Source: Nitrospirota bacterium (GTDB lineage Bacteria > Nitrospirota > Thermodesulfovibrionia > Thermodesulfovibrionales > Dissulfurispiraceae). Taken from it: 64,000 nucleotides of DNA. Position 1 is the stretch's first letter, and each line of letters starts with the position of its first letter. The notes under the pieces were generated by a model. That model made no database searches and was not told the origin of the DNA. It saw only the letters and a program-made list of their open reading frames with translations. Positions 22,635-64,000 of this stretch are shown here, one piece after another. The stretch is from NCBI GenBank assembly GCA_040754455.1, contig JBFMCP010000011.1, positions 1 through 64,000 of the forward strand, in the 5' to 3' direction. The translations under genes and the position numbers were made by a program.

Positions 22635-22745
22635 TTTTTAGGATAACATCCGGTCAGGGTATTAGGCAAGGAATGAGTCCTCCTGCACACTGAGCTGCAT
22701 GCATTGTCTCATGCAACTCAATGTGCAGGAGCAGCGGATGGTTGC

Positions 22746-22925
22746 TTATTTTTTTGAGGCAGACTTCTTTGCAGCTTTCTTTGCAGCAGGCTTCTTTGCT
22801 GCTTTCTTCTTCGCGGCCGGTTTCTTTGCTGCTTTCTTCTTTGCAGCCGGTTTCTTTGCTGCGGTTTTCTTCTTCGCTGCAGTCTTCTTTTTTGCGGCCG
22901 GTTTCTTTGCTGCTTTTGTTGCCAT
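22746..22925 (-). CDS. Histone H1-like Lys/Ala-rich protein (59 aa)
   Basis: AAGGAGGT RBS; MATKAAKKPAAKKK... built from AAKK/PAAKK repeats. Confidence 0.85.
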   Translation of the reverse strand: MATKAAKKPAAKKKTAAKKKTAAKKPAAKKKAAKKPAAKKKAAKKPAAKKAAKKSASKK

Positions 22926-24418: not shown

Positions 24419-26587
24419 TTATTGCTGTACTATCGATGGCGTTATAAAGATGAGCAATTCCTCAGCTGTTGAACCTTTTGTGTCCCGCTTGAACAATCTC
24501 CCCAGGATCGGAATTTTCGAAACGCCAGGAACCGCTGATTCACTCTCAGTCTCATTACTTTTCAGTATGCCGCCGATCGCAATCGTCTCACCGCTTCTCA
24601 GAAGCACCTGGGTCGTTGCCGATCGTGAATTGATGGTAGGGTTGCCAAGGCTGTCGGTCCTTGAAAAGTCAGGCTCATCCTTATTCACATCGACCTTCAG
24701 GAAGACCGTGCCGTCAGGCGTTACCTGGGGAGTGACCGTTAATTTGATGTTGGCATCCTTATAGGTTGTCGAGAACGTGCCGTCAGGCAGTCTGGTTGTC
24801 ACCGGGATCTGGGCGCCATGCCGTATGATCGCCTGTTCATTTTCAACCGTCATGATTTTCGGATTCGAAATAATCTTTCCTCTCCCGCTTGACTCAAGGG
24901 CGGAGAGTCTGAAATCGAGAAGCAAAGAGCCATCCCTATTGATATAGCCGAAACCAAACGCTGCACCTGCGCCCGATCCGACAGCTGCGGGCAAATTAAC
25001 GACAAGCGGCAGGAGACTCTGTGAGGTTGTTGATCCGGCAGGAACTTGACCCGTGCCCACTTGCGTCTCAGGCGAGCCTGTATAGTCGCTCACATCGGTC
25101 ACCGGATTTCTTGTACCGCCGAAAGAATACCGCCCCTGCTTTGAAAAGCCCCATTGTATCCCCAGATCCTTTGTAAGGTTCTTATTGATCTCTACCATTC
25201 TCGCTTCGATGAGCACCTGTGGGGTCGGCTTGTCGAGCGATTCAATGAGCTTTTGGAGCTCAACCTGTACGGAGGGAATATCCTTGACAATAAGGGACCG
25301 CGTCCTGGTATCGGTGCCGATACTCCCCCTCGGGGAAAGTGCCTTTGCCTTGTCGATCGACTCTTTCACCTTTTCAACATTGGCATAATTCACTGTAAAA
25401 ACGCGCGTCTCGATATCCTCGGCCTTGCCAAAGACCTCTTTGGTATCGGCAATCGCCTTCTTTTCATCCTGGAACGCTTTCAAAGTGGCTACTCTTATAA
25501 CATTGCCTTCGATCACTTTTTCCAGATTGAACGTTTTTAATACAATATCCAGCGCCTGTTCCCAGGGCACATTCATGAGCTTCATGGTGATCCTTCCCTT
25601 TACCTCAGGGTGCACCACGATGTTATAGCCGCTCACATCGCCCAAAAGCCTCAGGATCGGGACGATGTCGGCATCTTGAAAATCAAGAGAGATCAACCGG
25701 GCCGTCTCTTTTACCTCTTTCTGGTCCCCCGCCTGCATGACCGATGCAGCACCTGCCTTCGCCTTTCCCTGCACCACGTCTTTGCGGCGGATACTCACCA
25801 TCAGCTCGTCATCCAGCACAGCGACCTCTGCTGTGGCATCACGCTCCAGCTCAAGGATGAATCTGACCTTGCCCTGATCGGCTTTATAGGAGACCTTCTT
25901 GAGCGGTGCCGTTATATCAGAGGGCAGCGGGGCGCTCATAAGAACGCCGGGAATTTCGATGGTCACCTTGTTACTCAATTCAAAAACAATCGGATCAGGC
26001 ATCATGCCGTCTCCCTCGATAACAAGCTCGGCAACCTCACCTGCTTTGGTAAAGAGCACATTGACAATCGACCGGGCGGGACCCTCCCCACTCCCCGCAG
26101 GGTCGGGGCTCGCCGCTGTCGTTACTATTTCTGCAGCATCCTGTGCGACTGCTACTGTTTTTGCATCCTCTTTTATATAAAGCATGAGTGCATCATCTTT
26201 GATTGCAGCATCGATCGACGAGGGTGCCGGGAGGAGAATATTCAGATGCGCTGCCATTACAGGGGCGTGGGTCTGGAGGGGAGCAATTTCAGTAATGCCG
26301 GGCTTTGCAGAATAGATCTTATTCCTGAATGTTCCGATGCTCGCACCCTCTATCTCCACTATTGCCCTGAAGGGGTCGTCGGGTTTGTTGATCTTGTACC
26401 GGATCGGACCATTCAAAGTGATTTTGACGGCGTGATCCAATATCTCGATTCCGGTAACCTCGGATACCGGCTTCGTCCCGTTGCTGTCATCGGCAAAAGC
26501 AGGCATGCACAACCCCAGCAGTGCTACTCCAAAAGCAATGACAGTTATCACTATCCGTATATTGCTCATATTCAATTGCTCTCTCAT
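24419..26587 (-). CDS. pilQ: Type IV pilus secretin
   Basis: AMIN-like N-terminus, ISLDFQDADI, VPWEQALD, QVLIEARMVE, GVSKIPILGRLFK, ELLIFITP; true start may be the second Met. Confidence 0.95.
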   Translation of the reverse strand: MREQLNMSNIRIVITVIAFGVALLGLCMPAFADDSNGTKPVSEVTGIEILDHAVKITLNGPIRYKINKPDDPFRAIVEIEGASIGTFRNKIYSAKPGITEIAPLQTHAPVMAAHLNILLPAPSSIDAAIKDDALMLYIKEDAKTVAVAQDAAEIVTTAASPDPAGSGEGPARSIVNVLFTKAGEVAELVIEGDGMMPDPIVFELSNKVTIEIPGVLMSAPLPSDITAPLKKVSYKADQGKVRFILELERDATAEVAVLDDELMVSIRRKDVVQGKAKAGAASVMQAGDQKEVKETARLISLDFQDADIVPILRLLGDVSGYNIVVHPEVKGRITMKLMNVPWEQALDIVLKTFNLEKVIEGNVIRVATLKAFQDEKKAIADTKEVFGKAEDIETRVFTVNYANVEKVKESIDKAKALSPRGSIGTDTRTRSLIVKDIPSVQVELQKLIESLDKPTPQVLIEARMVEINKNLTKDLGIQWGFSKQGRYSFGGTRNPVTDVSDYTGSPETQVGTGQVPAGSTTSQSLLPLVVNLPAAVGSGAGAAFGFGYINRDGSLLLDFRLSALESSGRGKIISNPKIMTVENEQAIIRHGAQIPVTTRLPDGTFSTTYKDANIKLTVTPQVTPDGTVFLKVDVNKDEPDFSRTDSLGNPTINSRSATTQVLLRSGETIAIGGILKSNETESESAVPGVSKIPILGRLFKRDTKGSTAEELLIFITPSIVQQ

Positions 26588-27153
26588 CCCTCTTCCTCCC
26601 TGCGGAGCTTTAAAATAGTATCCCTCGGATTGACAACACCGCTATAATCTCGCACGTGCTCTCTGATGATCACGGCATCTCTCGTAATTCTTTGCACTTT
26701 CCCTCGATGCAAGCCCAGCTTCATCCCCTCTCTTATGGTGTAGGATTTGCCGTCGGGCAGCGTAATCACTGCATAATAGCCGGACCTGTTCCACAGGACG
26801 GCGATGAGCTTGAATTCCACTACTTCGTAACTCTCTATGGGGGTCAGCCCCTTTTTATCGATATCCGCCTTTACCACGAGCGGCATAAAGGGATCTCTTC
26901 TGCCCTGAGAAGTGTATTCATAGACAGGCACCGTCTTTTTCTCTGCGTCCTGTGCGTTTGCTTCCGCCGGTGCAGGGCTTTTTACCGGAAGATTCGCCTG
27001 AGCGGGAGATGGTGTTTTTGCCGGTGCAGGTGCTGCTTTGGCGGGAGCCGCAGGTTTCTGCGCACTGCCCCCTTTGCCGGTGAAATAGACGGCTGCTGCC
27101 GCACCGATAATGATGCCGAGGAGCGAGACCAATATGATGAGCCACTTTTTCAT
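26584..27153 (-). CDS. pilP: Type IV pilus assembly protein PilP
   Basis: RRDPF.PL, TPIESY, LIAVLW, DGKSY..REG.KLG; operon position. Confidence 0.9.
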   Translation of the reverse strand: MKKWLIILVSLLGIIIGAAAAVYFTGKGGSAQKPAAPAKAAPAPAKTPSPAQANLPVKSPAPAEANAQDAEKKTVPVYEYTSQGRRDPFMPLVVKADIDKKGLTPIESYEVVEFKLIAVLWNRSGYYAVITLPDGKSYTIREGMKLGLHRGKVQRITRDAVIIREHVRDYSGVVNPRDTILKLRREEEG

Positions 27154-27785
27154 TTCTTGTCCTTTGCTGCCTTTTCCAGCTCTTTTTTCTCGCTCTCGGA
27201 TAAAAGGGAATAGGTCATCGCGGTAAAACTCACATTGAGGCTTATCATCCCCTTCTGTTGCCGCTGGTCGCCCGTCTTCGCCTGTATATTGCCGATATTG
27301 ACGATCCTGTTCAACCCGGTGACATTGCTGAAGAACTGTCCGAACCTATGATAGGTGCCGCGCATCGCTACCTCAACCGGTATCTCATAGACCTCTTTGC
27401 TGGGATGTACACTTCTTTCCCGAGGCCGCCAGGAAATGATCTGAAGGCCCGATTTGATTCCCAAATCCGAGACCTGCTTCAACAGCCCGGAGACCTCTTT
27501 CTCCATAGGCAATTGCAGCTGCAGTTCGGCAAGCTTCTCGGTGAGCCTCTTGTTCTCTGCCATCAGGAGCGGAAGTTTTGCCGAGGTCTTCCGGAGCGTT
27601 GCGATCTCGTTATCCTGCCTCTCTAGCTCCTCGTTCAATTGGCGCATCTCTTCCAGCGCAGGTTTGATGAAGAGCATGACAAAGATCACTATGATCACGA
27701 GGGAAGGCAGCGCAAGAAGCAGGTTCTTCTTCAGAGGAGGAAGGCTCTCTATAGTGTTCATATCGACACCTAACTTAAATTCCAT
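27150..27785 (-). CDS. pilO: Type IV pilus assembly protein PilO
   Basis: TM, coiled coil, LP.EKEV.GLL, YEIPV...GTYH.FG.FF..V..L.RIV. Confidence 0.93.
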   Translation of the reverse strand: MEFKLGVDMNTIESLPPLKKNLLLALPSLVIIVIFVMLFIKPALEEMRQLNEELERQDNEIATLRKTSAKLPLLMAENKRLTEKLAELQLQLPMEKEVSGLLKQVSDLGIKSGLQIISWRPRERSVHPSKEVYEIPVEVAMRGTYHRFGQFFSNVTGLNRIVNIGNIQAKTGDQRQQKGMISLNVSFTAMTYSLLSESEKKELEKAAKDKK

Positions 27786-27792
27786 CTGTCAC

Positions 27793-28335
27793 TCACACCT
27801 TTATCTTGAAATTCAGTTTGAACCGGTAGACCTTTACCTTTTCTACTTCCGTTTCGCTCGATTCCTCCAGATAGACATCGGCGAAGCTCGGCGATTTCTT
27901 CAGGTTGTCCACATAGGCAACAATATCGTTATTGGTAAACGCGATGCCTTCGAGAGAAACGCCGTTATCCCTATAGAGAAACGAACTCAGCCAAACCCCT
28001 TCCGGTATCAGACTGCTCACCTCATCGAGGAGCTTTACCGGGACCGATTGATTCTTTCTTAATGTTTCGATGAGATTGCTCTTCTGCTCAAGCTCCTTAT
28101 TGAGCCGCTCGTATTTCTTTATTTCATTGATCCTCTTCGAGAGATCATTGATCGTTACTCTGTTTGTCTCCCGCTGCTCCTTCATGTGGGACACTTTGCT
28201 TTTAAGGAAAATGGTAGTGCCGCCTACAACAATGAGAGTTACGAGGGTGATGCCGGAGACGAGGACGAGAAAACCCGCCGGCCCCGCTGCCTTCTTCTTT
28301 TTCCTCTTCTCCGTGAGCAGGTTGACTCGTATCAT
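27793..28335 (-). CDS. pilN: Type IV pilus assembly protein PilN
   Basis: MIRVNLL, TM, coiled coil, IPEGVWL. Confidence 0.93.
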   Translation of the reverse strand: MIRVNLLTEKRKKKKAAGPAGFLVLVSGITLVTLIVVGGTTIFLKSKVSHMKEQRETNRVTINDLSKRINEIKKYERLNKELEQKSNLIETLRKNQSVPVKLLDEVSSLIPEGVWLSSFLYRDNGVSLEGIAFTNNDIVAYVDNLKKSPSFADVYLEESSETEVEKVKVYRFKLNFKIKV

Positions 28336-29399
28336 TACCGGTCACCGCTGCGCCGCAAAGCCAAACCCACCGCCACTGCGGTAATCGGCGCAATCTCCTT
28401 TATATAGGCGACGTCAAGTTTATCGGAGATCCTTATATTTTTGAAAGGGTCCGCGACTTCCACAGACATTCCGAGCCTCTCGGCCATCATTTCAGGAAAC
28501 CCCTTTATCAGTGCGGCACCGCCGCTCAGGATGATGCCGTGGATGTCCTCATCGCTTACGCTGCTCCTGAAGTATTCAAACGAGCGGTAGATTTCGGTAT
28601 AGATTTCATCTGAGGCGGTCGTAATGACGAGCTGGGCGTTTTCAGGAGCGGCTCCCTCTATAGACTGTCCCCTCTTGAGCCGCTCTGCGTCCTCACGTGA
28701 AACGGAAAGTTCTCTCATAAGGGCGTCCGTATGATTATTGCTGCCGATCGAGCTGTCCCTGGTGAAGACCGGAATTCCCGTCTGAAAGATATTGATGTTC
28801 GTTTTGCTCGCTCCTACGTTGACGAGGGCGATATTTTTTCCATTGGCGCTCTCGTAGTTGACCTCGTACATATTGCCGAGGGCAAAGGAGTCGATATCGA
28901 GCACAATAGGATCGAACCCGGCCTTTTCGACCGTTTCGACATACTCGGCAATAATGTTCTTCTTCACCGCAACGAGGACAACGTCCATCTGGCTCTCCTC
29001 ATCGGGCCGGGGGCCGAGGATCTGGAAGTCTATATTTACGTCGTTGATATCAAAAGGGATATACTGTTCCGCCTCGTATTTGATTGATGTGGCGAGCTCT
29101 TCCTCAGCCATCAGCGGTAACGTAATTTTTTTTATAATGACGGAGGAATGTCCTGATACACCGATGACCGCTTCCTTTGCCTTTATTCCCGCTTTGCCGA
29201 AGAGCTCCTTGATGGTACCGGCGACCATTCCCCTATCGGCGATGGACCCGTCGACAATACTTTCAGGCGGGAGCGGCAACATACCGGCAAAGGTAAGTTC
29301 ATAGCCCGAAGCGGTTTCATTGACCTGTGCGGCCTTTATATAACTCGAACCGATATCGAGACCTACAGGAATGCTCTTTCGTTTGAAGTTAAACGGCAT
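28335..29399 (-). CDS. pilM: Type IV pilus assembly protein PilM
   Basis: VGLDIGSS.IK, EAEQYIPF, LVNVGAS, ILSGGAA, AVGLALR. Confidence 0.96.
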   Translation of the reverse strand: MPFNFKRKSIPVGLDIGSSYIKAAQVNETASGYELTFAGMLPLPPESIVDGSIADRGMVAGTIKELFGKAGIKAKEAVIGVSGHSSVIIKKITLPLMAEEELATSIKYEAEQYIPFDINDVNIDFQILGPRPDEESQMDVVLVAVKKNIIAEYVETVEKAGFDPIVLDIDSFALGNMYEVNYESANGKNIALVNVGASKTNINIFQTGIPVFTRDSSIGSNNHTDALMRELSVSREDAERLKRGQSIEGAAPENAQLVITTASDEIYTEIYRSFEYFRSSVSDEDIHGIILSGGAALIKGFPEMMAERLGMSVEVADPFKNIRISDKLDVAYIKEIAPITAVAVGLALRRSGDR

Positions 29400-53771: not shown

Positions 53772-54650
53772 TTATTTCGTTAAAATATCCACGATCTTCC
53801 GGTATCTGGCCACGGTCTTCTGCACGATCTCATCGGGGAGCACCGGACCCGGATAGGTTTTGTCCCAGTCAAGGGTAAGAAGGTAGTCCCTTACGAGTTG
53901 CTTGTCAAAGCTGTCCTGTCCCTTGCCGGGCTGGTAGTCCTTTATCGACCAGAACCGCGATGAATCGGGGGTGAGGAGCTCATCGATCAGGATCAACCTG
54001 TTTTCATACAATCCGAATTCCATCTTCGTATCGGCGATGATGATGCCTTTCTTCTCCGCAATCTCTCTGCCCCTTTTGTACACTTTGAGACTCACCTCTT
54101 TGAGTTGTTCCGCAAGGGCAGGATCAACGAGCTTTTTCATCTCATCGAAACTGATATTGACGTCGTGTCCCTCTTCCGCTTTCGTGCTCGGCGTAAAGAT
54201 AGGCTCATCGAGCCGGGAAGATTCCACGAGACCTCCGGGAAGCTTGATCCCGCCGACAGTCCCTCTTTCTTTGTACTCCTTCCATCCGGAGCCCGAGAGA
54301 TATCCGCGCACAATGCACTCGACAGGCATCGGCGTTGCCTTTTTCACCAGCATGCTCCTGCCTTCGAGCACACTCTTATGTTTCTGGAGCACGGAGGGAT
54401 AATCTTTCACCTCAGTCGCTACAATATGGTTTTCGATAATATCCTTCATCTGGTCGAACCAATAGAGGGATATGCGGGTCAGCATCGTTCCTTTATCGGG
54501 AATGCCGTTGGGCAGCACTACATCAAAGGCCGAAACCCTGTCGGTAGCGACAATGAGGAGATAGTTGTCCACTTCATAGACGTCCCTCACCTTGCCGCGC
54601 CTGACCAGCTTCACCTCATCGAAATCCGTTTTCATGACTACGTCAGCCAT
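53772..54650 (-). CDS. purC: SAICAR synthetase
   Basis: [50 protein letters not shown]. Confidence 0.97.
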
Positions 54651-54712: not shown

Positions 54713-57382
54713 TCATAAACGGGCGGGAGCAGCACTACGCCGCCGTATCCACTTCTCGATCTCAACCGCAAAAAATACCACCGTGGAAAGCGCGAGGATC
54801 GACAGCAGCTCGTGCGCCGTAAGCGGTACCGTCTTGAATATAGAATTAAAGAACGGCACATAGATGACCGCCATCTGGAGAAGAAAGGTAACGAGCACCG
54901 CCCCCAGCATTGCCTTGATTTTTTCTGGAGGCATTCTGAAGAACGATTGCTGCTCAGAGGTAAGGGCCAGTGCAGTGCCGAGTTCAGCTACACAGATGAA
55001 GGTGAAGACCATGGTCTGCCACTTTGCATGCAAGCCGCCGTTCATCGTGCCCGCCTGGAGCATGATGCCGATGCCTGCCAGGAGGAGACCCGTCCAGAGG
55101 ACGCTCACCATCATCCGAGCACCAATGATCCCGGCCTTGGGATCACGGGGCGGTCTGCTCATCACATTCGGCTCCGCAGGCCCCGCAGCAAAGGCGAGGC
55201 TCGGCAGGCCGTCGGTAACGAGATTGAGCCAGAGCATATGAATCGGCAGGAGGGGGAGGGGCAGTCCGAAGAACGGGGCAAAGAAGATCAGCATGATCTC
55301 ACCAGAATTGGTTGAAAGTATATAGCGGATCATCTTCTCGATTCCGTCGAATATCCTTCTCCCCTCCTTAACCGCCTTGACGATGGTGGCGAAATTATCG
55401 TCCAGGAGAACCATGTGGGCCGCCTGCTTCGCCACATCGGTGCCGGTGATGCCCATCGCAATACCGATATCTGCGCGTTTCAGGGCAGGGGTGTCGTTGA
55501 CACCATCCCCCGTCATTGCGACAAATTGTCCTTTGTCCTGGAGCGCTTTGACGATCTTCAGCTTCTGTTCGGGGGCAACCCGGGCATACGCCCTGATATG
55601 TTCAACCCGTTCTTCAAACTCCTCGAGAGGCAACTTTTCAAGCTCCCTTCCTGTCATCACTCCCCGCTCACCCTCAAGTATCCCGAGCCTTTTAGCGATA
55701 GCCCGTGCGGTAAGGGGATGGTCGCCCGTAATCATGACCGGCTTGATTCCCGCACTCTTGCACAGGGCAACCGCCTCCTTTGCTTCCTCCCGGGGCGGAT
55801 CCATCATGCCGACAAGTCCGAGCATCGTGAGGCCTGTCTCGACCTGCTCGGGCGACAGGTTTTCAGGAATCCTGTCCCATGTCCTCATGGTGATACATAA
55901 AATTCTCAGCCCATCCGCAGCCATTCGCTCATTGATTTTAAAAACAGCTTGTTCATTGACTGCTTTTGTTCCCTGCACGGTAAGCACATCCTCCGATTTT
56001 TCGGCAAGCGACTCGACCGCACCTTTGGTGAACGATACAAAACCGCCACCCCATTTATGAAAGGTGGTCATTGCCTTTCGTTCAGAATCAAAGGGAACCT
56101 CAGCCATCCTCGGAAAGTCATTCTCGAGGGCTTTCTTATCAAAGCCAAGCTCTTTGGCAATATTATAGAGTGCGATTTCGGTCGGATCGCCGATCATCGT
56201 TCCATCGGCGCCCATCTGCGCGTCATTGCTCAACGCAAGGGCAATCATCATCAGCTCGGAAGCGCGGAGGTCCGGAAGCGCAGAAGGGACGGGCTTCCTT
56301 AATGTGACCTCCGCACTTCCACGCTTCAGATCCTCCGCTCTCGCTACTTTCTCATCAACATAGACCTCTTCAACGGTCATTTTATTCAGGGTAAGCGTCC
56401 CTGTCTTATCGGAGCAGATGTAGGTGACCGAGCCGAGCGTCTCTACTGCCGGGAGCTTTCTCACCAATACATTCTGCCTGACCATTTTCCTTGCCCCGAG
56501 AGCAAGCGATATGGTCACCACCGCTGGCAGTGCCTCCGGAATCGCTGCAACAACAAGGGTGAGGGCGGTCATGAACATTCCCAGAACCGGCTCCCCCCTC
56601 AGTATGCCGAAACCAAAGACAATGGCGCAGATGGCGATCACCGACAGCGCAAGTTTTCTCCCGAATGCGGCCAGTCTCTTTTGAAGCGGTGTTTTGACCT
56701 CCTCCTCTTCCTGGAGCATGGTGGCGATCTTACCGAGCTCCGTGTCCATTCCGGTGGCGACCACAATGCCACTCCCTCTCCCATACGATACCGTCGTGCC
56801 CTTGTATGCCATATTTTTTCTATCACCGAGGGAAAGCGCTGCGTCCTCCAATGCTTCCGTGTGCTTTTCTACAGGAACCGACTCCCCCGTAAGCGCTGCC
56901 TCTTCAACTTTCAACTGTGCCGCTTCCGCAAGCCGCATGTCAGCAGGCACGATTTTCCCGGCCTCGAGCAGCACCATATCACCGGGCACAATCTCCGAGG
57001 CCTGAATATCCGCAGGCACTCCGCTCCTGATGACCGTCGCCGTCGGCGCCGCCATCTTCTCAAGAGCTGCCATCGCCTTTTCTGCCCTGTACTCCTGGAT
57101 AAATCCTATAATCGCGTTGAGAACAATGATCACGATGATGGCAATAGTATCCGAGAGCTCGCCGATAAAGCCCGATATTCCCGCGGCAGCGACGAGCACG
57201 AGGATCATGAGATCCTTGAATTGATCGAGAAACATCATGAAGGGGGTCTTTTTCTTCTTCTCTTTCAGCTTATTGGGGCCGTAATCAGCCAGGCGCTTCC
57301 GCGCCTCTTCAGGGGAAATCCCCTGAAGGGATGTATTCAGTTCGGCGACAACTGCATCGATTCTCTTCTGGTGCCAGCGCAT
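54713..57382 (-). CDS. P2A-type cation-transporting P-type ATPase (Ca2+/Mn2+ class)
   Basis: [51 protein letters not shown]. Confidence 0.95.
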
Positions 57383-57418
57383 GAATGCTCCTTCTAAAGC
57401 CAAGATTAAAGGCTCAGG

Positions 57419-57688
57419 TCAGTCGAACAATTCTTCGAAGAACGATTTCATTTTGTGTTTCTTATGTCCGTAGTGTTTATCTTTGTATTCGTAATGTTTA
57501 TGCTTATTCCTGGACTCCTCATGGGGTACATGTCGATGTCCCTCATCATACACTGAAGCGGATCTTTCTATAATTTTATCAAGCTCGCCGCGATCTAACC
57601 ACACCCCGCGGCACTGCGGGCAATAATCGATCTCGATTCCCTGCCGCTCGGATATCGCCAGGGCGATAGTACATGCCGGACATTTCAT
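57419..57688 (-). CDS. zf-TFIIB zinc-ribbon protein with His/Lys-rich tail
   Basis: CPAC...IEIDYCPQCRGVWLDRGELDKI; His-rich segment and terminal SFFEELFD. Confidence 0.9.
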   Translation of the reverse strand: MKCPACTIALAISERQGIEIDYCPQCRGVWLDRGELDKIIERSASVYDEGHRHVPHEESRNKHKHYEYKDKHYGHKKHKMKSFFEELFD

Positions 57689-57716
57689 ACCGGATACCTC
57701 CCTTCCAATGGCCTGG

Positions 57717-58016
57717 CTACTTCTTGAATACGCTGAAAAGCTTATCGAGCCCCGTCTTTTCGAGCCGGGCTACTGCCTCGAGCTCTCCAGCATCGAGCCA
57801 GATCCCCTCGCACTCCGAGCATTTATCGACCTTTATGTCTTTATAGTCAATCTCTATCAGCTCCATCCCGCACTTGGGGCAGCGCATAAAATGGAGCTCT
57901 CTGAGCCGCTTCTTCTCCTCATCGGCGAGCCTCCTATGCTTCTCCTCCTCGATCTTCTTTAATCTCTCATACTCCTTCCTTGCTACATACTCCTCTTCTC
58001 TTTCGCTTGGTCTCAT
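57717..58016 (-). CDS. zf-TFIIB zinc-ribbon protein
   Basis: EEEY.AR coiled coil, CPKCG...DKCSECEGIWLDAGELE; AAGGAGG RBS and ATGA coupling to the upstream gene. Confidence 0.88.
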   Translation of the reverse strand: MRPSEREEEYVARKEYERLKKIEEEKHRRLADEEKKRLRELHFMRCPKCGMELIEIDYKDIKVDKCSECEGIWLDAGELEAVARLEKTGLDKLFSVFKK

Positions 58017-58225
58017 TGCATATACCTCCTTTTTCCGTTCTGCAGCTTGGTTTTCACTGCCCTTAATAAACCTCTCGCCCAACTGAACTCGGTGGAGAGG
58101 ATCCCCAGGCCGAGCGGTATCACGACAACGGCAGGGCCGGGCAGAATAATCATTGCAATGCCTCCCGCCAGCACGGCAAACCCGACGACGGCCACCAGCA
58201 CCCTCTTCATCGATCGCACAACCAT
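58013..58225 (-). CDS. PGPGW-family small membrane protein
   Basis: G..VL..GIAMIILPGPA.VVIPLGL.ILSTEF.WA. Confidence 0.85.
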   Translation of the reverse strand: MVVRSMKRVLVAVVGFAVLAGGIAMIILPGPAVVVIPLGLGILSTEFSWARGLLRAVKTKLQNGKRRYMQ

Positions 58226-58232
58226 GATGCGA

Positions 58233-59696
58233 TTATCCCAGGAACTTTCTTATATGCGCTGCCTCAATGAGCATCCGCTGCATATTCGAATGGTCATTCT
58301 CCCTGAGGGCCTTTATGATCCGTGAAGTGATCTTCTTGTACTCAGGGAGTATGCTGTATTCACCCCAGTCGAGCCGGAGCGATTTCCTCACCTCATCCGG
58401 AAGAAGTGCAAGCACCTCCTCGTTAAAAAAGGACATTGCCGTCTTCATATCGAACATGAAGTTCACATGCATATCCTTCATGCATGCTCTATCCTCAGGG
58501 GTAAGAACATTAAGCCCGATGATCTCCGGCGGCAGGCCGATGGAATAGCAGGCGGCACAGAAGCTTATAACTCTCGGGAGCGAGGTGGTGCCGATGCTGC
58601 GGGCGTATCCGAAAAGACCGACATGGAGCTTTCGCATCCTTCGCCTCGGAACAAAACCTGCCATATGGTTGATAACGGGAGCAAGATATTCTATAAGTCT
58701 CCGGTATTCCACCGACACCTTTTCTATGATTTCGATGCACTTCCCCTCGTCCAGGTCATATCCCCTCATCATCCGGGTTCCTCTCAGCCTCTCTATGGCG
58801 GAGGTGACCGACAAAACGGAGTAGTCGTACTTGAAAGCAGACTGGATGGTAAATGTCTGGACATCGGGATACTCTTCCAGCATCATGTCGACGGTGTCGG
58901 GGGTAAGATGTCCTCTGAACGGCGCAGAACCGGCGCCGAGTATGGGGTATATTGCAACGCCGGTCTCTTCGGAGAGCTTCCTCAGGCGTTGAAGGGCGAT
59001 TTTATTGCAGAGGATTGCGCTTACCATGCCGTAGTTCATAGCGGGATCGGACCTGGCGATAAAAACCCGCTGGTGCTTGATATCCTTCCCCTTCAAATAT
59101 TCGCCTATAATGCGGTGGGCCTCGAGCATATGCACCTTATCCTCGAAAAGCGGGATCACATTGATGGTTCCAGGCTGGAACTCTCCGATCCACTCGGAGA
59201 TGGTGATGTCCCCCGGGTAAAAGGGCTTATGCCCCTTTCCCACCACAAAATCCTTGTAGTAATAGTAGACCCTGTTCAGACTCTCAGGGGATATCGTCAT
59301 CGGCAGAATGACTTCGAAAATGGGAGGGATGTCCTGTCCATAAAACAGCCGCGCAGCATCGCAGGACCGGGGTATGCTCTCAAGTGTCTCTATGAGGACT
59401 TTGGCTTCCTGCCGTTCCGCATCGGGGTTGGGGACCCGCAACGTGAGGAAGATATCCTCCCCCAACCTCTTCTGTTTGAAAAAGTGCTCATATTTGGTGA
59501 GGAGCTTGCGCACGACGAAATCATCGACTTCCTTGCCCTCGCAATCCCACATCTGCTCATCGATACCGAGGTGCGAATAGGCGTAATACGCTTCCTGTAT
59601 CTCGTCATCTCCCGACATGTCCTGACTCTCGGCAAAGAAGGGCAGGACGACATTGTCCGGGTGCTGTGTCGACATTACCCTCGGAATCCTCATCAT
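58233..59696 (-). CDS. ppcA: Archaeal-type phosphoenolpyruvate carboxylase
   Basis: IPRVMSTQHPDN, EQMWD.EGK, LTLRVPNP, FEVILPM, VIPLFED, ARSDPAMNYG, G.GSAPFRG, T.QSAFKYD, LPR.ISF, RKFLG; 487 aa. Confidence 0.95.
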   Translation of the reverse strand: MMRIPRVMSTQHPDNVVLPFFAESQDMSGDDEIQEAYYAYSHLGIDEQMWDCEGKEVDDFVVRKLLTKYEHFFKQKRLGEDIFLTLRVPNPDAERQEAKVLIETLESIPRSCDAARLFYGQDIPPIFEVILPMTISPESLNRVYYYYKDFVVGKGHKPFYPGDITISEWIGEFQPGTINVIPLFEDKVHMLEAHRIIGEYLKGKDIKHQRVFIARSDPAMNYGMVSAILCNKIALQRLRKLSEETGVAIYPILGAGSAPFRGHLTPDTVDMMLEEYPDVQTFTIQSAFKYDYSVLSVTSAIERLRGTRMMRGYDLDEGKCIEIIEKVSVEYRRLIEYLAPVINHMAGFVPRRRMRKLHVGLFGYARSIGTTSLPRVISFCAACYSIGLPPEIIGLNVLTPEDRACMKDMHVNFMFDMKTAMSFFNEEVLALLPDEVRKSLRLDWGEYSILPEYKKITSRIIKALRENDHSNMQRMLIEAAHIRKFLG

Positions 59697-60328
59697 TGTG
59701 CTATCCTCTCAAACCTATCGGTGGAGGGATTGTAGGAGCACATACTTCCCTCTCCTATGTCATAGTACCAGCCGTGGAGGTGCAGCGTTCCCTCATTCAA
59801 TGACTGCTCAACAAAGGGATAGGTCTGTATATTATTCAATTGCAGCAGGATATTCTCCTCCTCGGTAATCCGTTGGCGGGATTCCTCGGAAGAGATCTTA
59901 TCCGGGTAAAATTTAGTGACGATGAGCTTTACCGGGAATGCAAGTTTCAGCCACTCCTTCAGGTGCGGCATATGCTCAAAATCCCCTTCAGAATGGTAAA
60001 GCGCCTGCATGGCGCCGCAATTCGAATGTCCGCATACGATGATATCGGCCACCTTCAGGCCGAGTACGGCAAACTCAATAGCTGCGGCAACGCTGTTTTT
60101 GTCCTTTATGGCATCGTAGGGGGGAACGATATTTCCTACATTTCTCACAATGAAAAGCTCACCCGGCCTACTTTGCGTCACGAGGTTGGGGTCCACCCGC
60201 GAATCCGCACAGGTGATAAAGAGCACTTTTGGAGATTGATGCTCGGAAAGGCGCCTGAAAAGATCCCTCTCCCTCTTAAAATACGACTCCTGAAATGTGT
60301 GAATACCCCTATACAGTTTTTCGACCAT
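59693..60328 (-). CDS. Beta-class carbonic anhydrase
   Basis: Q.P..LFITCADSR, GELFIVRNVGN, GHSNCGAM, HGWYYDI; ATGA-type overlap with ppcA. Confidence 0.95.
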   Translation of the reverse strand: MVEKLYRGIHTFQESYFKRERDLFRRLSEHQSPKVLFITCADSRVDPNLVTQSRPGELFIVRNVGNIVPPYDAIKDKNSVAAAIEFAVLGLKVADIIVCGHSNCGAMQALYHSEGDFEHMPHLKEWLKLAFPVKLIVTKFYPDKISSEESRQRITEEENILLQLNNIQTYPFVEQSLNEGTLHLHGWYYDIGEGSMCSYNPSTDRFERIAQ

Positions 60329-60344
60329 ACTATCGCTCCAATAT

Positions 60345-60465
60345 AAAAAGACCTTTACCACTTTTAAAGTAAGAGCTAAGAAGTGAGAACTCAAGAAGTA
60401 AAAGATAAAGGCAAATACTATTACTTCTCACTTCCTACTTCTTACTTTTCAGGTGGTAAAGGTCT
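60345..60465 (-). terminator. Riboswitch expression-platform terminator with a repeat-filled loop
   Basis: 13-bp perfect stem, 60349-60361 with 60453-60465, followed by UUUU on the minus strand; one arm overlaps the aptamer P1 3' strand. Confidence 0.8.
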
Positions 60466-60552
60466 CGCTTGTTAGACTGTCCTAACCAGCGGTACCGGGT
60501 CAAATGTACGACCGTATTGACGATAGCCGCTGCTACAGCTACTCCCCTTTAC
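60456..60552 (-). ncRNA. yybP-ykoY (Mn2+-class) riboswitch, copy 1
   Basis: Minus strand GUAAAGGGGAGUAGC ... CGUCAAUACGG ... GUUAG..CUAAC AAGCGAGACCUUUAC; P1 GUAAAGG/CCUUUAC; upstream of an operon with a P-type ATPase, zf-TFIIB and PGPGW genes. Confidence 0.9.
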
Positions 60553-60561
60553 TATTGTTCT

Positions 60562-60590
60562 ACCTTACCCCAAATGGGAAGATATGTCAA
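60562..60590 (-). promoter_or_regulatory. Sigma70 promoter directly upstream of riboswitch copy 1
   Basis: TTGACA (60590-60585), 17 nt, TAAGGT (60567-60562); predicted +1 lies just before the aptamer. Confidence 0.7.
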
Positions 60591-60660
60591 CTATCATTTC
60601 CCGTAAGGAAGAACTCTCTTCACCTCGCCCTCTCCTCAAGCGCCACCATACGTGAATGTC

Positions 60661-63000
60661 CTACGATAAATAGGCCACCTCGGGAAGCAGATAGGAGACA
60701 ACATCCCTGTAGGATATGACTCCTACGACCTTCTCATCTTCGGTTACCGGAAGGTGCCTGATCTTTTTATCCGACATGAGCGTAACGGCAATGCCGAGAT
60801 CGGAAGAGGCATCGAGCGTTACCGGCGTAGGCGTCATGACATTCCTCATTACCTCGCTGTTCAACTGAACGCCTTTGACCAGGCAATGCATGATGTCCCG
60901 CTCGGTGAATATGCCGATTAGTTCTCCTTCCGCATCAGCGACGAGCAGCGAGCCGATATTCTTGCCGTCCATGATAGTCACGGCGTCCGCGACAATGCAG
61001 TCGGGGCTGCAGGTCTCCACGATCATCGGCTTTGACTGTACCACATCCTTCAGCGTCATTCGTGTGCTCCGCTCAAGCACCTCGATTCTCTCCGAGGGAA
61101 TCCCGAACTGCTCCTGCAGCTTCACCAGGCTCTGTTTTCTTACTTTTACCGCCTCCACCGGGCAGGCCTCGTAGCATGCCCTGCACTTGACGCAGTCGTC
61201 CCGATCGATGAAGTATTTATCTCTCGTTTCTTTTACCGCACCAAAGGCGCATGCCTCCTTGCAGAGCCCACACCGTATGCATTCCGTCTGGTTAATAATG
61301 TATACGCCCATCCCCGAGCATACCTTTGCGCGGCAGTAGTGGTCGTACACATGCTCCTCGACCTCCTCTCTGAAGTACTTGATGACCGAGAGTATGGGAT
61401 TGGGAGCGCTCTTGCCGAGGCCGCACAGGGAGCCTCTCTGTATGTTCTTACCGAGCTGTATGAGCTTCTCGATATCGCCGGGCTTTCCTTTTCCTGTAGT
61501 AATATTCTCCAGGATCTGAAGCATCTGGTACGTGCCGATCCTGCAGGTCGGGCACTTGCCGCATGACTCCGACTGGGTAAAAGAAAGGAAGTACTTTGCC
61601 ACGTCCACCATGCAGGTGTCTTCGTCCATAACGACCATTCCGCCCGAGCCCATCATTGACCCGACCTTTATAAGAGAATCGAAATCGACGGGCATGTCGA
61701 GATGGCTCGCGGGGATACATCCTCCGGAAGGGCCGCCCGTCTGAACGGCCTTGAATGCTTTGCCGCCGAGGGTCCCTCCTCCTATGTCAAAGATGATTTC
61801 TCGTAGCGTCGTCCCCATCGGGACTTCGATAAGCCCTGTGTTCTTTACCTTGCCGGTGAGTGCAAAGACCTTCGTTCCCGGAGCGCTCTCGGTACCGATG
61901 CTCCTGAACCATTCGGCGCCCTTTTCAATAATGGGGGGCACACAGGCAAAGGTCTCAATGTTATTCATATTGCTCGGATAGCCCCAGACTCCTCCTCCCA
62001 CCTCGGAAGGAAGCGGCGGCCTCGTCCTCGGAAATCCTCTTTCACCCTCAAGAGATGCCACCAGCGCGGATGCTTCACCGCAGACAAAAGCTCCGGCGCC
62101 TTCACGTATCTTGAGGAGGAAGTTGAAACCGGTCCCAAGGATATTATTTCCAAGCAGGCCGATATCTTCCGCCTGCTTTATGGCATGCCTGAGGTTCTTC
62201 ACTGCAAGAGGATACTCATGCCGCACATAGATGAAGCCGTACTGTGCTCCGATCGCATAGGCGCAGAGAAGCATGCCCTCAAAGAGACTGTGAGGATCGC
62301 CTTCCATGATCGACCGATCCATGAACGCACCGGGATCGCCCTCATCCCCGTTCGCAATAACGAATTTCACGGGACTGTTGGAGCTCCTGGTATGCCGCCA
62401 CTTCTGGCCCGCGGGAAAGCCGGCCCCGCCTCTTCCTCTGAGGTGCGCCCGATCAACCTCCTGCAGCACCTCATCCGGCGTCATTGAAGAGAGCGCCTTC
62501 TCGAGTGCGGCATATCCACCCACGGCAATATAGTGGTAGATATTTTGCGGATCGATCTTATCGTTATTTCTCAGCGCAATCCTCAGCTGTTTTTTGTAGA
62601 AGGGGATCGATTCCATTTCCGGAATAGGCTCGCTCATGATGTCCTCTCGATACAGCGCCTGCCTGAAATAGTTTCCCTTTCCGGATAAAGAGTTAATAAG
62701 GGGTTCCGCATGCTCCGGTTTTACCTTTTGATAAAACGTATTCTGTGGGTCAATCCGCATGACAGGCCCCTTTTGGCACATCCCCTGGCACCCTGTTTTT
62801 ATGATCTCCGGGGCAAGGCCTTTCTTCCGGCCCTCTTCCTTGAGGGCAGCGACGACGTTATGCGAGCCCATAGCTGCACAGGCCGTACCGCAGCAGACAT
62901 GTATTCTCTCCCGGTCTTTCTGAAAAATTTCTCCAGAAAGCCTTTCTCTAAGCTTTTTCAGATCATCAATACTCGCCAGCCTCTTCGTTAACATCTCCAT
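60661..63000 (-). CDS. NuoF/HydB-like NADH-binding FMN/Fe-S protein with C-terminal 2x[4Fe-4S] and a CBS pair
   Basis: Thioredoxin-like 2Fe-2S (CCGTAC..GCQGMC), LRGRGGAGFP, NGDEGDPGAFMDR, GAGAFVCGE, ESCGKC.TCR.G, CIRCGLC..AC, CVKCRAC..AC, then CBS (IGSLLV..GIFTERD; IRHLPV..GVIS.RD). Confidence 0.92.
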   Translation of the reverse strand: MEMLTKRLASIDDLKKLRERLSGEIFQKDRERIHVCCGTACAAMGSHNVVAALKEEGRKKGLAPEIIKTGCQGMCQKGPVMRIDPQNTFYQKVKPEHAEPLINSLSGKGNYFRQALYREDIMSEPIPEMESIPFYKKQLRIALRNNDKIDPQNIYHYIAVGGYAALEKALSSMTPDEVLQEVDRAHLRGRGGAGFPAGQKWRHTRSSNSPVKFVIANGDEGDPGAFMDRSIMEGDPHSLFEGMLLCAYAIGAQYGFIYVRHEYPLAVKNLRHAIKQAEDIGLLGNNILGTGFNFLLKIREGAGAFVCGEASALVASLEGERGFPRTRPPLPSEVGGGVWGYPSNMNNIETFACVPPIIEKGAEWFRSIGTESAPGTKVFALTGKVKNTGLIEVPMGTTLREIIFDIGGGTLGGKAFKAVQTGGPSGGCIPASHLDMPVDFDSLIKVGSMMGSGGMVVMDEDTCMVDVAKYFLSFTQSESCGKCPTCRIGTYQMLQILENITTGKGKPGDIEKLIQLGKNIQRGSLCGLGKSAPNPILSVIKYFREEVEEHVYDHYCRAKVCSGMGVYIINQTECIRCGLCKEACAFGAVKETRDKYFIDRDDCVKCRACYEACPVEAVKVRKQSLVKLQEQFGIPSERIEVLERSTRMTLKDVVQSKPMIVETCSPDCIVADAVTIMDGKNIGSLLVADAEGELIGIFTERDIMHCLVKGVQLNSEVMRNVMTPTPVTLDASSDLGIAVTLMSDKKIRHLPVTEDEKVVGVISYRDVVSYLLPEVAYLS

Positions 63001-63099
63001 AGCTACCTCCCACATAATGTATTTCGCTCGTCTTCTCATGGGATGGATGAGGTCTCTTGCCTTCCCTTTGATAAAGCCTCTCTCTCCATCTCTCTATAT

Positions 63100-63202
63100 A
63101 AAAAGACCTTTACCATTTGAAACTAAGAAGTAGGAAGTGAGAAGTTAGATTTTACGCTTACTTCCCAGTCCTTGCTTCTTACTTTTCAGGCGGTAAAGGT
63201 CT
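63100..63202 (-). terminator. Riboswitch expression-platform terminator with a repeat-filled loop
   Basis: 11-bp stem, 63104-63114 with 63192-63202, plus a U-tract; loop contains AAGAAGT/AGGAAGT/GAGAAGT heptamers and their complements. Confidence 0.78.
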
Positions 63203-63289
63203 CGCTTCTTAGATTGCCCTAACCAGCGGTACCGGGTCGAATGTACGACCGTAGTGACGATAGCCGCTGCTACAGCTACTCCCCTTTAC
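63193..63289 (-). ncRNA. yybP-ykoY (Mn2+-class) riboswitch, copy 2
   Basis: Same architecture as copy 1, with 5 substitutions in 97 nt by manual alignment (L3 GUCACUAC vs GUCAAUAC). Confidence 0.9.
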
Positions 63290-63526
63290 AAACGCACAAA
63301 CAGCAGACCAATATTCCTCTGCAGCAGTACTTTTACAAGCAACGCGATTATTGCTGGTGCATCCTGACCGGGGCCTTATGCATCGCAGGGCTTACAGCAT
63401 ATGCTGCAGAAGGTTGCTGCTTAGTTCTACAGTACACGAATTCTTAAAGCGTTTTCCCTGACCTTATCACGTCATAATAAATCCTCATAGAGATTAAAAA
63501 CGTTCTACTTATGGTATTCTAGAAAT

Positions 63527-64000
63527 GTGGATATAAAGCTGAAACTGTTTTGCACTGTTGCCGAAACGAAGAGTTTCTCAAAGGCCTCCCGGATCGTTCA
63601 TCTCACCCAGCCTGCCGTGAGCCTGCAGATCCAATCGCTTGAGGAATTTTTCGAGACGAAACTCTTCGACCGATCAGAGGGAATGGTAAGCCTTACCCCT
63701 GCGGGGAAAATACTGTATAAGCACGCAAAACACCTGCTCGAACATTATGCTGAAATCGAGAAAGAGATCGGAACGCTCACCGGCATGATAAAAGGGGGTG
63801 TCGCGGTAGGCGCGAGCACCACGCTGGGGAACCATGTACTGCCCCGCGTCATCATTGATTTCAAGAAGAAACACCCCAAGATCAAATTCAGCATGCTCGT
63901 AGGCAACACAAAGCGCATTGAGGATCTCCTAATATCAGGGCTCATTGATATCGGTCTGGTTGAGGGCGAAACATCCAGGCCCACCTTGCGTATAGAGCCG
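63527..64000 (+). CDS. LysR-family transcriptional regulator (3' truncated by the window; absent from the ORF track)
   Basis: Manual translation from GTG 63527: MDIKLKLFCTVAETKSFSKASRIVHLTQPAVSLQIQSLEEFFETKLFDR...LTPAG...GASTTLGNHVLP. Confidence 0.92.
   Translation, partial: MDIKLKLFCTVAETKSFSKASRIVHLTQPAVSLQIQSLEEFFETKLFDRSEGMVSLTPAGKILYKHAKHLLEHYAEIEKEIGTLTGMIKGGVAVGASTTLGNHVLPRVIIDFKKKHPKIKFSMLVGNTKRIEDLLISGLIDIGLVEGETSRPTLRIEP

Follow-up and report, generated by a model that had tools for sequence, protein, structure and literature searches.

The 64,000-nt stretch analysed here (positions 1 to 64,000 of contig JBFMCP010000011.1 of a Nitrospirota bacterium; the window, below) carries on its minus strand two near-identical RNA leaders, each made up of an aptamer of about 105 nt followed by a long terminator hairpin (Table 1). 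Leader A precedes six closely spaced genes (operon A) that encode a carbonic anhydrase (CA), a phosphoenolpyruvate carboxylase (PEPC), a small membrane protein, two Zn-ribbon proteins and a P-type ATPase, and leader B precedes a single flavoprotein gene (unit B). The first-pass annotation of this DNA had placed both leaders in the yybP-ykoY riboswitch class and had described CA, PEPC and a NuoF-type flavoprotein as unusual cargo for it. Our results point to two probable Mn2+ switches of this class, set ahead of metabolic genes that we found behind no other listed member of the family.

Table 1. Leaders, genes and neighbouring features of the locus
Feature	Coordinates	Strand	Details
Predicted aptamer A, yybP-ykoY-class, P2-less three-way junction	60451..60555	minus	R1 78.9 bits, E 1e-17; RF00080 14.4 bits
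Predicted terminator A	60341..60465	minus	arms ~41 nt + UUUUUAUAU; -54.0 kcal/mol, z -7.8; inverted repeat I1
Predicted aptamer B, yybP-ykoY-class, P2-less three-way junction	63188..63292	minus	R1 74.3 bits, E 1.5e-16; RF00080 13.7 bits
Predicted terminator B	63096..63202	minus	long hairpin + U-tract; -45.5 kcal/mol, z -5.6; repeats I2, I7, D9
Flavoprotein: NuoE/HydC-like + NuoF/HydB-like fusion + 2x[4Fe-4S] + C-terminal CBS pair	60661..63000	minus	779 aa from ATG 63000; reading frame open from 63039
Beta-class carbonic anhydrase	59693..60328	minus	211 aa; Pfam Pro_CA (PF00484) 169.1 bits
Archaeal-type PEP carboxylase PpcA	58233..59696	minus	487 aa; Pfam PEPcase_2 (PF14010) 630.6 bits, profile 1-493 of 493
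PGPGW small membrane protein	58013..58225	minus	70 aa; Pfam PF09656 70.2 bits
Zn-ribbon (TFIIB-type) protein 1	57717..58016	minus	99 aa; Pfam PF13453; ATG overlaps PGPGW stop (ATGA), AGGAGG upstream
Zn-ribbon (TFIIB-type) protein 2	57419..57688	minus	89 aa; Pfam PF13453 73.2 bits; Shine-Dalgarno GGGAGG
Type IIA (PMR1/SERCA-like) P-type ATPase	54713..57382	minus	889 aa from ATG 57382; reading frame open from TTG 57403; Pfam
purC (SAICAR synthetase)	53772..54650	minus	Pfam SAICAR_synt
LysR-family regulator	63527..64000	plus	N-terminal 158 aa, runs off window end; Pfam HTH_1 + LysR_substrate; divergent from leader B

A 137-nt direct repeat with 91% identity is common to both leaders (60416-60552 and 63153-63289), and the pattern GGGGAGTAGC-N3-30-TCGTCA was found exactly twice in the window (60518-60547 and 63255-63284, with an actual gap of N14), against 0 matches expected from 100 shuffles. 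With the stable hairpins that follow, this confirms the two near-identical aptamer-plus-terminator leaders reported in the first pass, on the strand and at the positions given there. Identity between copies A and B is high in the aptamer (92/97), in the 5′ base of the terminator (19/20) and in its 3′ arm with the U-tract (20/21), and it falls to 48/84 in the upper hairpin, 33/112 in the upstream region and 8/56 in the region past the terminator. Since conservation between the copies is limited to the working parts, that is, the aptamer and the terminator base, the comparison argues that both copies have been kept functional. Three of the five aptamer differences lie in loops; a fourth replaces a G.U pair of P3.2 by G-C, and the fifth disrupts P4 at its outermost pair in copy B. 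Loop L1 (GGGGAGUAG) is unchanged in both copies, and L3 reads UCAAUAC in copy A and UCACUAC in copy B, with its C-A kept in both; the A-to-C change of copy B is seen also in two TerC-linked members of the family (L008, L073). The L3 C-A are the invariant metal-coordinating nucleotides described by Martin et al. (PMC6649816), and an adenosine of L1 makes a cross-helix A-minor contact (PMC12153347, PMC6649816). That the long hairpin is a mobile element present in several copies was also considered and rejected, as a repeat search found no further copies within the window.

For an independent family model, genomes were scanned with the pattern GGGGAGTAGC N6-19 TCGTCA N36-66 GAGACC, in which the loop strings were fixed and all helices left free. 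The scan yielded at least 120 stretches from many phyla; the sample is rich in Bacillales and biased to the genomes scanned first, and the window's own genome is not among the matches listed, to which all locus counts given here refer. Bacillus atrophaeus (L106) and Listeria (L112, L118) are among the members. After removal of two exact duplicates, and with the window excluded, 118 sequences were aligned. Their consensus holds 27 pairs, 20 of them with compensatory double changes, which form helices P1.1, P1.2, P3.1, P3.2 and P4 around a three-way junction. The covariance model built from those 118 sequences only (R1) returned exactly two matches at E<=10 in the 64-kb window, at 60555-60451 and 63292-63188, and the scores of both (Table 1) fall inside the range of the family's own members (47.6-96.9 bits). 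All helices are formed in both copies, the broken outermost P4 pair of copy B being the sole non-standard pair.

In 121 of 122 matches, made up of the 120 loci listed and the two copies of the window, the first gap of the scan pattern measured 11-16 nt, not enough to accommodate a P2 hairpin. With 14 nt between GGGGAGUAGC and UCGUCA the window copies are typical of these matches, and no P2 is possible in them; the four-way junction with P2, as in the crystallised members, is absent from both copies. The same P2-less geometry is common among the listed matches from Bacillales, Actinomycetota and Pseudomonadota. We therefore rejected the missing P2 as the mark of a new variant class, the geometry being common in the scan and already described for the E. 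coli alx riboswitch, which adopts a three-helix form without P2 (PMC12153347). Because alx lacks P2 and the mgtA riboswitch is described as lacking P4 (PMC6649816), P2 is not required for class membership.

To see what this RNA controls elsewhere, genes lying within 1.5 kb downstream on the same strand (<=1.5 kb) were recounted by tblastn, independently of open reading frame (ORF) calls, for 80 loci with 8-kb flanks and 40 with short flanks. TerC was found at 46 of the 80 flanked loci, a type II P-type ATPase at four (L023, L032, L043 and L055, with the pump directly behind the RNA in 4/4), an M48 protease at two, GDT1 and CNNM at one each, and none of these at 26; among the 40 short-flank loci, a TerC gene starts at 21 and an M48 gene at one. 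Pfam, run on 202 ORFs downstream of the RNA at 76 loci, agrees and gives TerC as the first gene in 38; its count is the lower one because ORFs in high-GC DNA could be called in a wrong frame, as in L055, where a 1415-aa ORF with no Pfam match overlies the same-strand ATPase in another frame. Other first genes are scattered (PAP2, Spo0M, DUF6376, VTT and kinase-like proteins of about 205 aa). Among all these genes, those for TerC, P-type ATPases and GDT1 count as textbook exporter genes of the yybP-ykoY class (PMC8632737). As the Rfam family RF00080 (Manganese, yybP-ykoY) was the only riboswitch family among the weak Rfam matches at both window sites, and the genes downstream of the family are mainly canonical exporters, the window RNAs are, judged by sequence, ordinary members of a known sub-architecture of the yybP-ykoY (Mn2+) class. 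The class assignment of the first pass is thus upheld by the R1 matches and by the family regulon.

In both leaders the aptamer and the terminator share a strand. In A, the 3′ strand of P1.1 (CCUUUAC, 60462-60456) is contained in the terminator's 5′ arm (60465-60425), and in B the corresponding strand (63199-63193) is contained in the arm at 63202-63162, so that the 5′ base of terminator A overlaps this strand at 60456-60465 and that of terminator B (AGACCUUUACC) reuses it. The minimum-energy fold of the whole leader is the terminator form (-85.4 kcal/mol for A, -74.9 kcal/mol for B). When P1.1 was enforced, the energies rose to -68.1 and -62.0 kcal/mol, a cost of approximately 17 and 13 kcal/mol, and in both leaders the upper hairpin was kept and the basal stem beside the U-tract was abolished. 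In these folding models the shared strand corresponds to the standard design of a ligand-dependent ON switch. In the proposed mechanism, the P1.1 3′ strand would be taken, without metal, by the 3′ arm of the hairpin (GUGGUAAAGGUCU), and this capture would complete an intrinsic terminator just ahead of the U-tract and stop transcription. At high Mn2+, docking of L1 and L3 would keep P1.1 closed and the terminator base blocked, and RNA polymerase would read on. Copy B would in this way gate the single gene for the HydC/HydB-like flavoprotein with its CBS pair, and copy A the packed operon from CA to the ATPase, possibly extending to purC; the ATPase would be the conventional effector, a Mn2+/Ca2+ efflux pump, and the remaining genes would be co-induced. 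We consider it probable that both elements are functional, transcriptional Mn2+ ON switches of the yybP-ykoY class, of known architecture and duplicated. The ligand and the read-through of the window switches are what we infer here.

The two terminator hairpins (60349-60465 and 63104-63202) are of unusual length: their arms measure about 41 nt and are rich in purines on the 5′ side. The same switch design recurs in two other members, L006 (Thermodesulfovibrionales) and L113 (Nitrospirota). Inspection of their sequences shows an identical basal stem that encloses a loop of just 14-20 nt. The hairpin insert of about 90 nt in the window copies would delay synthesis of the competing 3′ arm and so widen the time window for metal binding.

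The gene identities given in the first pass behind both leaders agreed with Pfam on every call. The flavoprotein of unit B carries the domains 2Fe-2S_thioredx, Complex1_51K, SLBB, NADH_4Fe-4S, Fer4 and CBS, the CBS pair being an extra C-terminal module. As the NuoF subunit of complex I it was rejected: against nuoF_fam (TIGR01959, NCBIfam) it scored 465.2 bits, below the cutoff of 558.65, and its best matches in the PDB, which cover residues 30-618 of 779, are HydB/HoxF/NfnB subunits from bifurcating hydrogenases. In the Atlas, the nearest cluster is HydB-like and consists mostly of Nitrospirota sequences, and its record starts at the same ATG (63000). This cluster and the nearest RNA relatives among the matches listed both point to Nitrospirota as the lineage of the window. 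No hydrogenase catalytic subunit was found by Pfam among the neighbouring window genes.

In operon A, the CA is best matched in the PDB by 5swc_A (E 5.7e-54), in an alignment where the CxDxR and HxxC motifs coincide; its CADSRVD and GHSNCG are presumably the Cys/His/Cys Zn ligands plus the Asp-Arg dyad. PpcA is full-length, with 604.8 bits on TIGR02751 (cutoff 146.05) and the PDB match 3odm_A. Zn-ribbon protein 2 had no NCBIfam match, and its His/Lys-rich C-terminal tail suggests metal binding. The ATPase scored best on PMR1- and SERCA-type models and stayed below both equivalog cutoffs (717.5 bits on the PMR1-type TIGR01522, cutoff 798.3), and it passed the general P-type model TIGR01494 (350.3 bits, cutoff 62.3). 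Its identity is 44% with the pump of L043 and 42% with that of L023, and these two pumps stand directly behind the same RNA. From its sequence it is likely a Mn2+/Ca2+ exporter, and the earlier proposal that it fits the known regulon of the riboswitch holds for this type IIA pump.

The CA start codon lies 12 nt past the last base of terminator A (60341), with GGAG 7 nt ahead of the ATG. The spacing from gene to gene in operon A is -4 nt (CA-PEPC, where the PpcA start overlaps the CA stop), 7 nt (PEPC-PGPGW), -4 nt (PGPGW to Zn-ribbon 1), 28 nt (Zn-ribbon 1 to 2) and 36 nt (Zn-ribbon 2 to ATPase). Because these junctions are tight, co-transcription of the operon is predicted and likely. PurC may be co-transcribed with the ATPase as well, since the 62-nt gap between the two holds no called terminator. 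If leader A has only a weak promoter, a single transcript may come under both switches in series. Unit B may be subject, besides its riboswitch, to protein-level control by the divergent LysR regulator; LysR regulators often control a divergent neighbour. The GC content is even across the genes of the cluster (0.49-0.57), and we rejected the cluster as a compositional island on this ground. Purine genes adjoin riboswitch units twice, namely purC after the window ATPase and purE after htpX in L006 (2925-3419), which may be coincidence or a conserved local gene order in the lineage.

Several observations weigh against two Mn2+ switches that govern these genes. No Rfam 15 family matched anywhere in the window at its gathering threshold, and with permissive filters RF00080, a model of 177 positions with a gathering score of 45 bits, gave only the low scores listed in Table 1. 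The training set of R1 was gathered with the window's own loop strings, so that the loops match by construction and only the helices are independent. Neither aptamer is directly followed by a canonical Mn2+ exporter (TerC, MntP, GDT1/UPF0016 or a P-type ATPase): in operon A the ATPase comes sixth, and unit B has no transporter. Genes for CA, PEPC or a HydB-like protein were found at 0 of the 120 other loci. Neither promoter could be identified with confidence: the best candidates before the aptamers, TTGACA-17-TAAGGT for A (9/12) and TTGTAA-17-AATATT for B (8/12), were not called by the consensus scan. A further promoter-like site (9/12) lies inside terminator A, at 60368-60340, and could in principle drive CA independently. 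The consensus scan itself performed at chance level (10 promoters vs. 7.0 +/- 2.3 expected, 10 terminators vs. 9.1 expected), and the riboswitch terminators escaped it, as their loops are longer than it allows.

The Rfam result was examined with a control set of 20 other elements with the same loop strings (L081-L098, L113 and L120), from Bacillus, Halobacillus, Paenibacillus, Oceanobacillus, Cohnella, Burkholderiales, Actinomycetota and a Nitrospirota genome. With RF00080 all of them stayed below 45 bits, the best at 34.9, and just 9/20 were reported at E<=1. In the window, the RF00080 alignments retain GGGGAGUAGC and the CGUCA region, and stretches of 19 and of 65-66 model positions are squeezed into 3 and 8-9 bases. 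As the same model misses 20/20 controls, the low score is a trait of the model facing the compact form and is no evidence about the window. The first-pass annotation had proposed the Rfam yybP-ykoY model as the check on both loci and the lack of a covariance-model hit as grounds for giving up the idea. Formally both loci do fall below 45 bits, and taken literally RF00080 gives no hit; the controls make this failure uninformative, and together with the independent model R1 they overturn it. With the window copies included, RF00080 of this Rfam release missed 22/22 compact P2-less elements examined, and annotation pipelines that use it may overlook a considerable fraction of Mn2+ riboswitches. 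Matches of the window hairpins to microRNA precursors (MIR1888 and others; 16-30 bits, in E-value mode) were dismissed as generic matches to long hairpins.

Concerning the cargo, when the proteins encoded in the window were compared by tblastn with the 120 loci (about 1.16 Mb in all), homologs were found for the ATPase only (L043, L023, L055 and L032). Our literature search, which did not extend to the tables of gene neighbourhoods in Dambach 2015 and Price 2015, found nothing that ties the yybP-ykoY class to CA, PEPC, NuoF or HtpX. The cargo is therefore as unusual as the first pass had supposed. Twin same-strand copies were met in 2 of the 80 flanked loci. By sequence, then, the twin arrangement has precedents, and the CA/PEPC/HydB-like cargo is without precedent in the sample and is seen in this one genome only.

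Why such genes should stand behind this RNA can be explained in several ways. It is possible, and we put it forward tentatively, that only the ATPase matters for the metal, and that CA, PEPC, the small proteins and the flavoprotein came under the switches through operon history. The ATPase is the sole cargo gene with homologs behind this RNA elsewhere, and the family regulon, dominated by exporters, includes stray first genes unrelated to them, such as PAP2, Spo0M, DUF6376 and VTT. Such a history does not easily account for unit B, which has its own conserved riboswitch yet no transporter, nor for the five genes between switch A and the pump, given that the pump stands immediately behind the RNA at all four other loci with an ATPase.

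A second explanation, that of the first pass, which we regard as rather unlikely, is that the genes form an adaptive module: high Mn2+, or a rise in Mn2+ driven by alkalinity as in alx, would switch on CA with PEPC as an acid-producing route of bicarbonate fixation, the cation-exporting ATPase and the redox flavoprotein, to serve as a cytoplasmic pH-stat or for anaplerosis triggered by the metal. The duplication of the riboswitch, with both copies under constraint before non-transporter genes, would fit such a module, as would the position of CA as the first gene past switch A, its 4-nt overlap with PEPC, and an even GC content that bears no trace of recent insertion. The missing P2 and a U-first L3 are common to the window aptamers and alx, whose alkaline response runs via Mn2+ (PMC12153347, PMC8632737), but both traits are also usual in the TerC leaders of Bacillales and hence give no specific pH signature, and the window platform is a terminator, unlike the translational platform of alx. 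Moreover, the linkage to this cargo occurs in the one window only, and the closest RNA relatives among the matches listed gate an HtpX-like protease. It is doubtful that the riboswitch was duplicated to recruit non-transport genes, with one copy drawing in the CA/PEPC pair, the PGPGW and Zn-ribbon proteins and the pump, and the other the CBS-tagged HydB-like flavoprotein, and that Mn2+, or alkalinity via Mn2+, directly reprogrammes carbon and redox metabolism beyond opening an efflux valve. If such adaptive co-regulation were true, the most widespread metal riboswitch would be extended from an export valve to anaplerotic CO2 fixation and a hydrogenase-type flavoprotein, and the locus would offer a compact natural system of two promoter-switch units for how Mn2+ or alkalinity feeds central metabolism.

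It appears improbable that Ca2+ is the main ligand, or that Ca2+ and Mn2+ act alike, with the operon serving calcium and carbonate handling through a PMR1/SERCA-type pump and bicarbonate supply. For the mgtA member of S. pneumoniae, binding of Ca2+ and a response to it are described in vitro, and the ATPase that it controls transports Mn2+ as well as Ca2+ (PMC6649816, PMC11672702); the window pump, for its part, scores best on Ca2+-ATPase models. Yet it falls below both equivalog cutoffs of those models, the two RNA forms differ in the helix that is missing, P4 in mgtA and P2 in the window (PMC6649816), and even for mgtA Ca2+ is described as the weaker inducer in vivo (PMC11672702). That the leaders are non-functional look-alikes or decayed copies, as the RF00080 scores could suggest against a gathering score of 45, is disfavoured and very improbable, for that model fails on all 20 controls, R1 recovers both copies with their helices intact, and purifying selection is limited to the aptamer and the terminator base.

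Taken as a pair of probable Mn2+ ON switches, the window leaders can be compared with known systems. With the P2-less leaders of TerC genes (alx and the sampled Bacillales ykoY-type) they share P1.1, P1.2, P3.1, P3.2 and P4, the lack of P2, L1, and an L3 starting with U-C-A (PMC12153347); they differ from them in a cargo that is not TerC and in their unusually long hairpin. E. coli alx combines its translational platform with a pH-linked response, whereas the window copies have intrinsic terminators. L. lactis yoaB and S. pneumoniae mgtA are Mn2+ riboswitches that turn on a type II P-type ATPase by way of a terminator (PMC6649816, PMC8632737), and the window pump is of broadly the same type. 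These riboswitches differ in form, yoaB having a four-way junction and mgtA no P4, in contrast to the P2-less window copies, and in gene order: the pump follows the RNA directly in yoaB, mgtA, L043, L023, L032 and L055, and five genes come between in the window. The locus is a reasonable experimental lead and not a new kind of system.

The closest aptamers among the matches listed are those of L113 and L006, which have the same AUCGUCA...CCGGU(A/G) core strings and share the window's terminator base exactly (GACCUUUACCA paired with UGGUAAAGGUCUUUUU). They differ from the window in their short terminator loops and in their gene, an HtpX-like M48 protease, with no CA, PEPC, HydB-like or ATPase gene. 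Tandem twins occur in L040 (Oceanobacillus arenosus; 7991-9341, minus strand), ahead of TerC and TerC, and in L069 (Ammoniphilus sp.; 7991-9127, minus strand), ahead of PAP2 and TerC. In these the twins are 1.0-1.25 kb apart, each with a gene of its own, whereas the window twins lie 2.7 kb apart and precede a flavoprotein gene and a six-gene operon.

Further genes were seen behind the same riboswitch in the scanned loci. The HtpX-like M48 membrane protease lies at 2059-2925 in L006 and from position 459 in L113, and such a protease is the second gene behind the riboswitch in a Bacillus locus (L037, 3419-4291). In L003, L034, L038, L051 and L075, from Sporosarcina, Paenisporosarcina, Planococcaceae and some Bacillus, the first gene encodes about 205 aa with a weak protein-kinase-domain match; in L038 it is split in two ORFs, and L005 has a gene of similar size with no Pfam match.

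Elsewhere in the window, about nine copies of a repeat with a 15-nt period (CTTCTTTGCTGCTTT-like) lie at 22734-22916, between a radical-SAM gene and a TonB-like gene, and would encode a Lys/Ala-rich repeat on the minus strand. A type IV pilus cluster, pilM-pilN-pilO-pilP-secretin, is located at 24419-29399 on the minus strand; this cluster and the TonB-like gene point jointly to a diderm bacterium.

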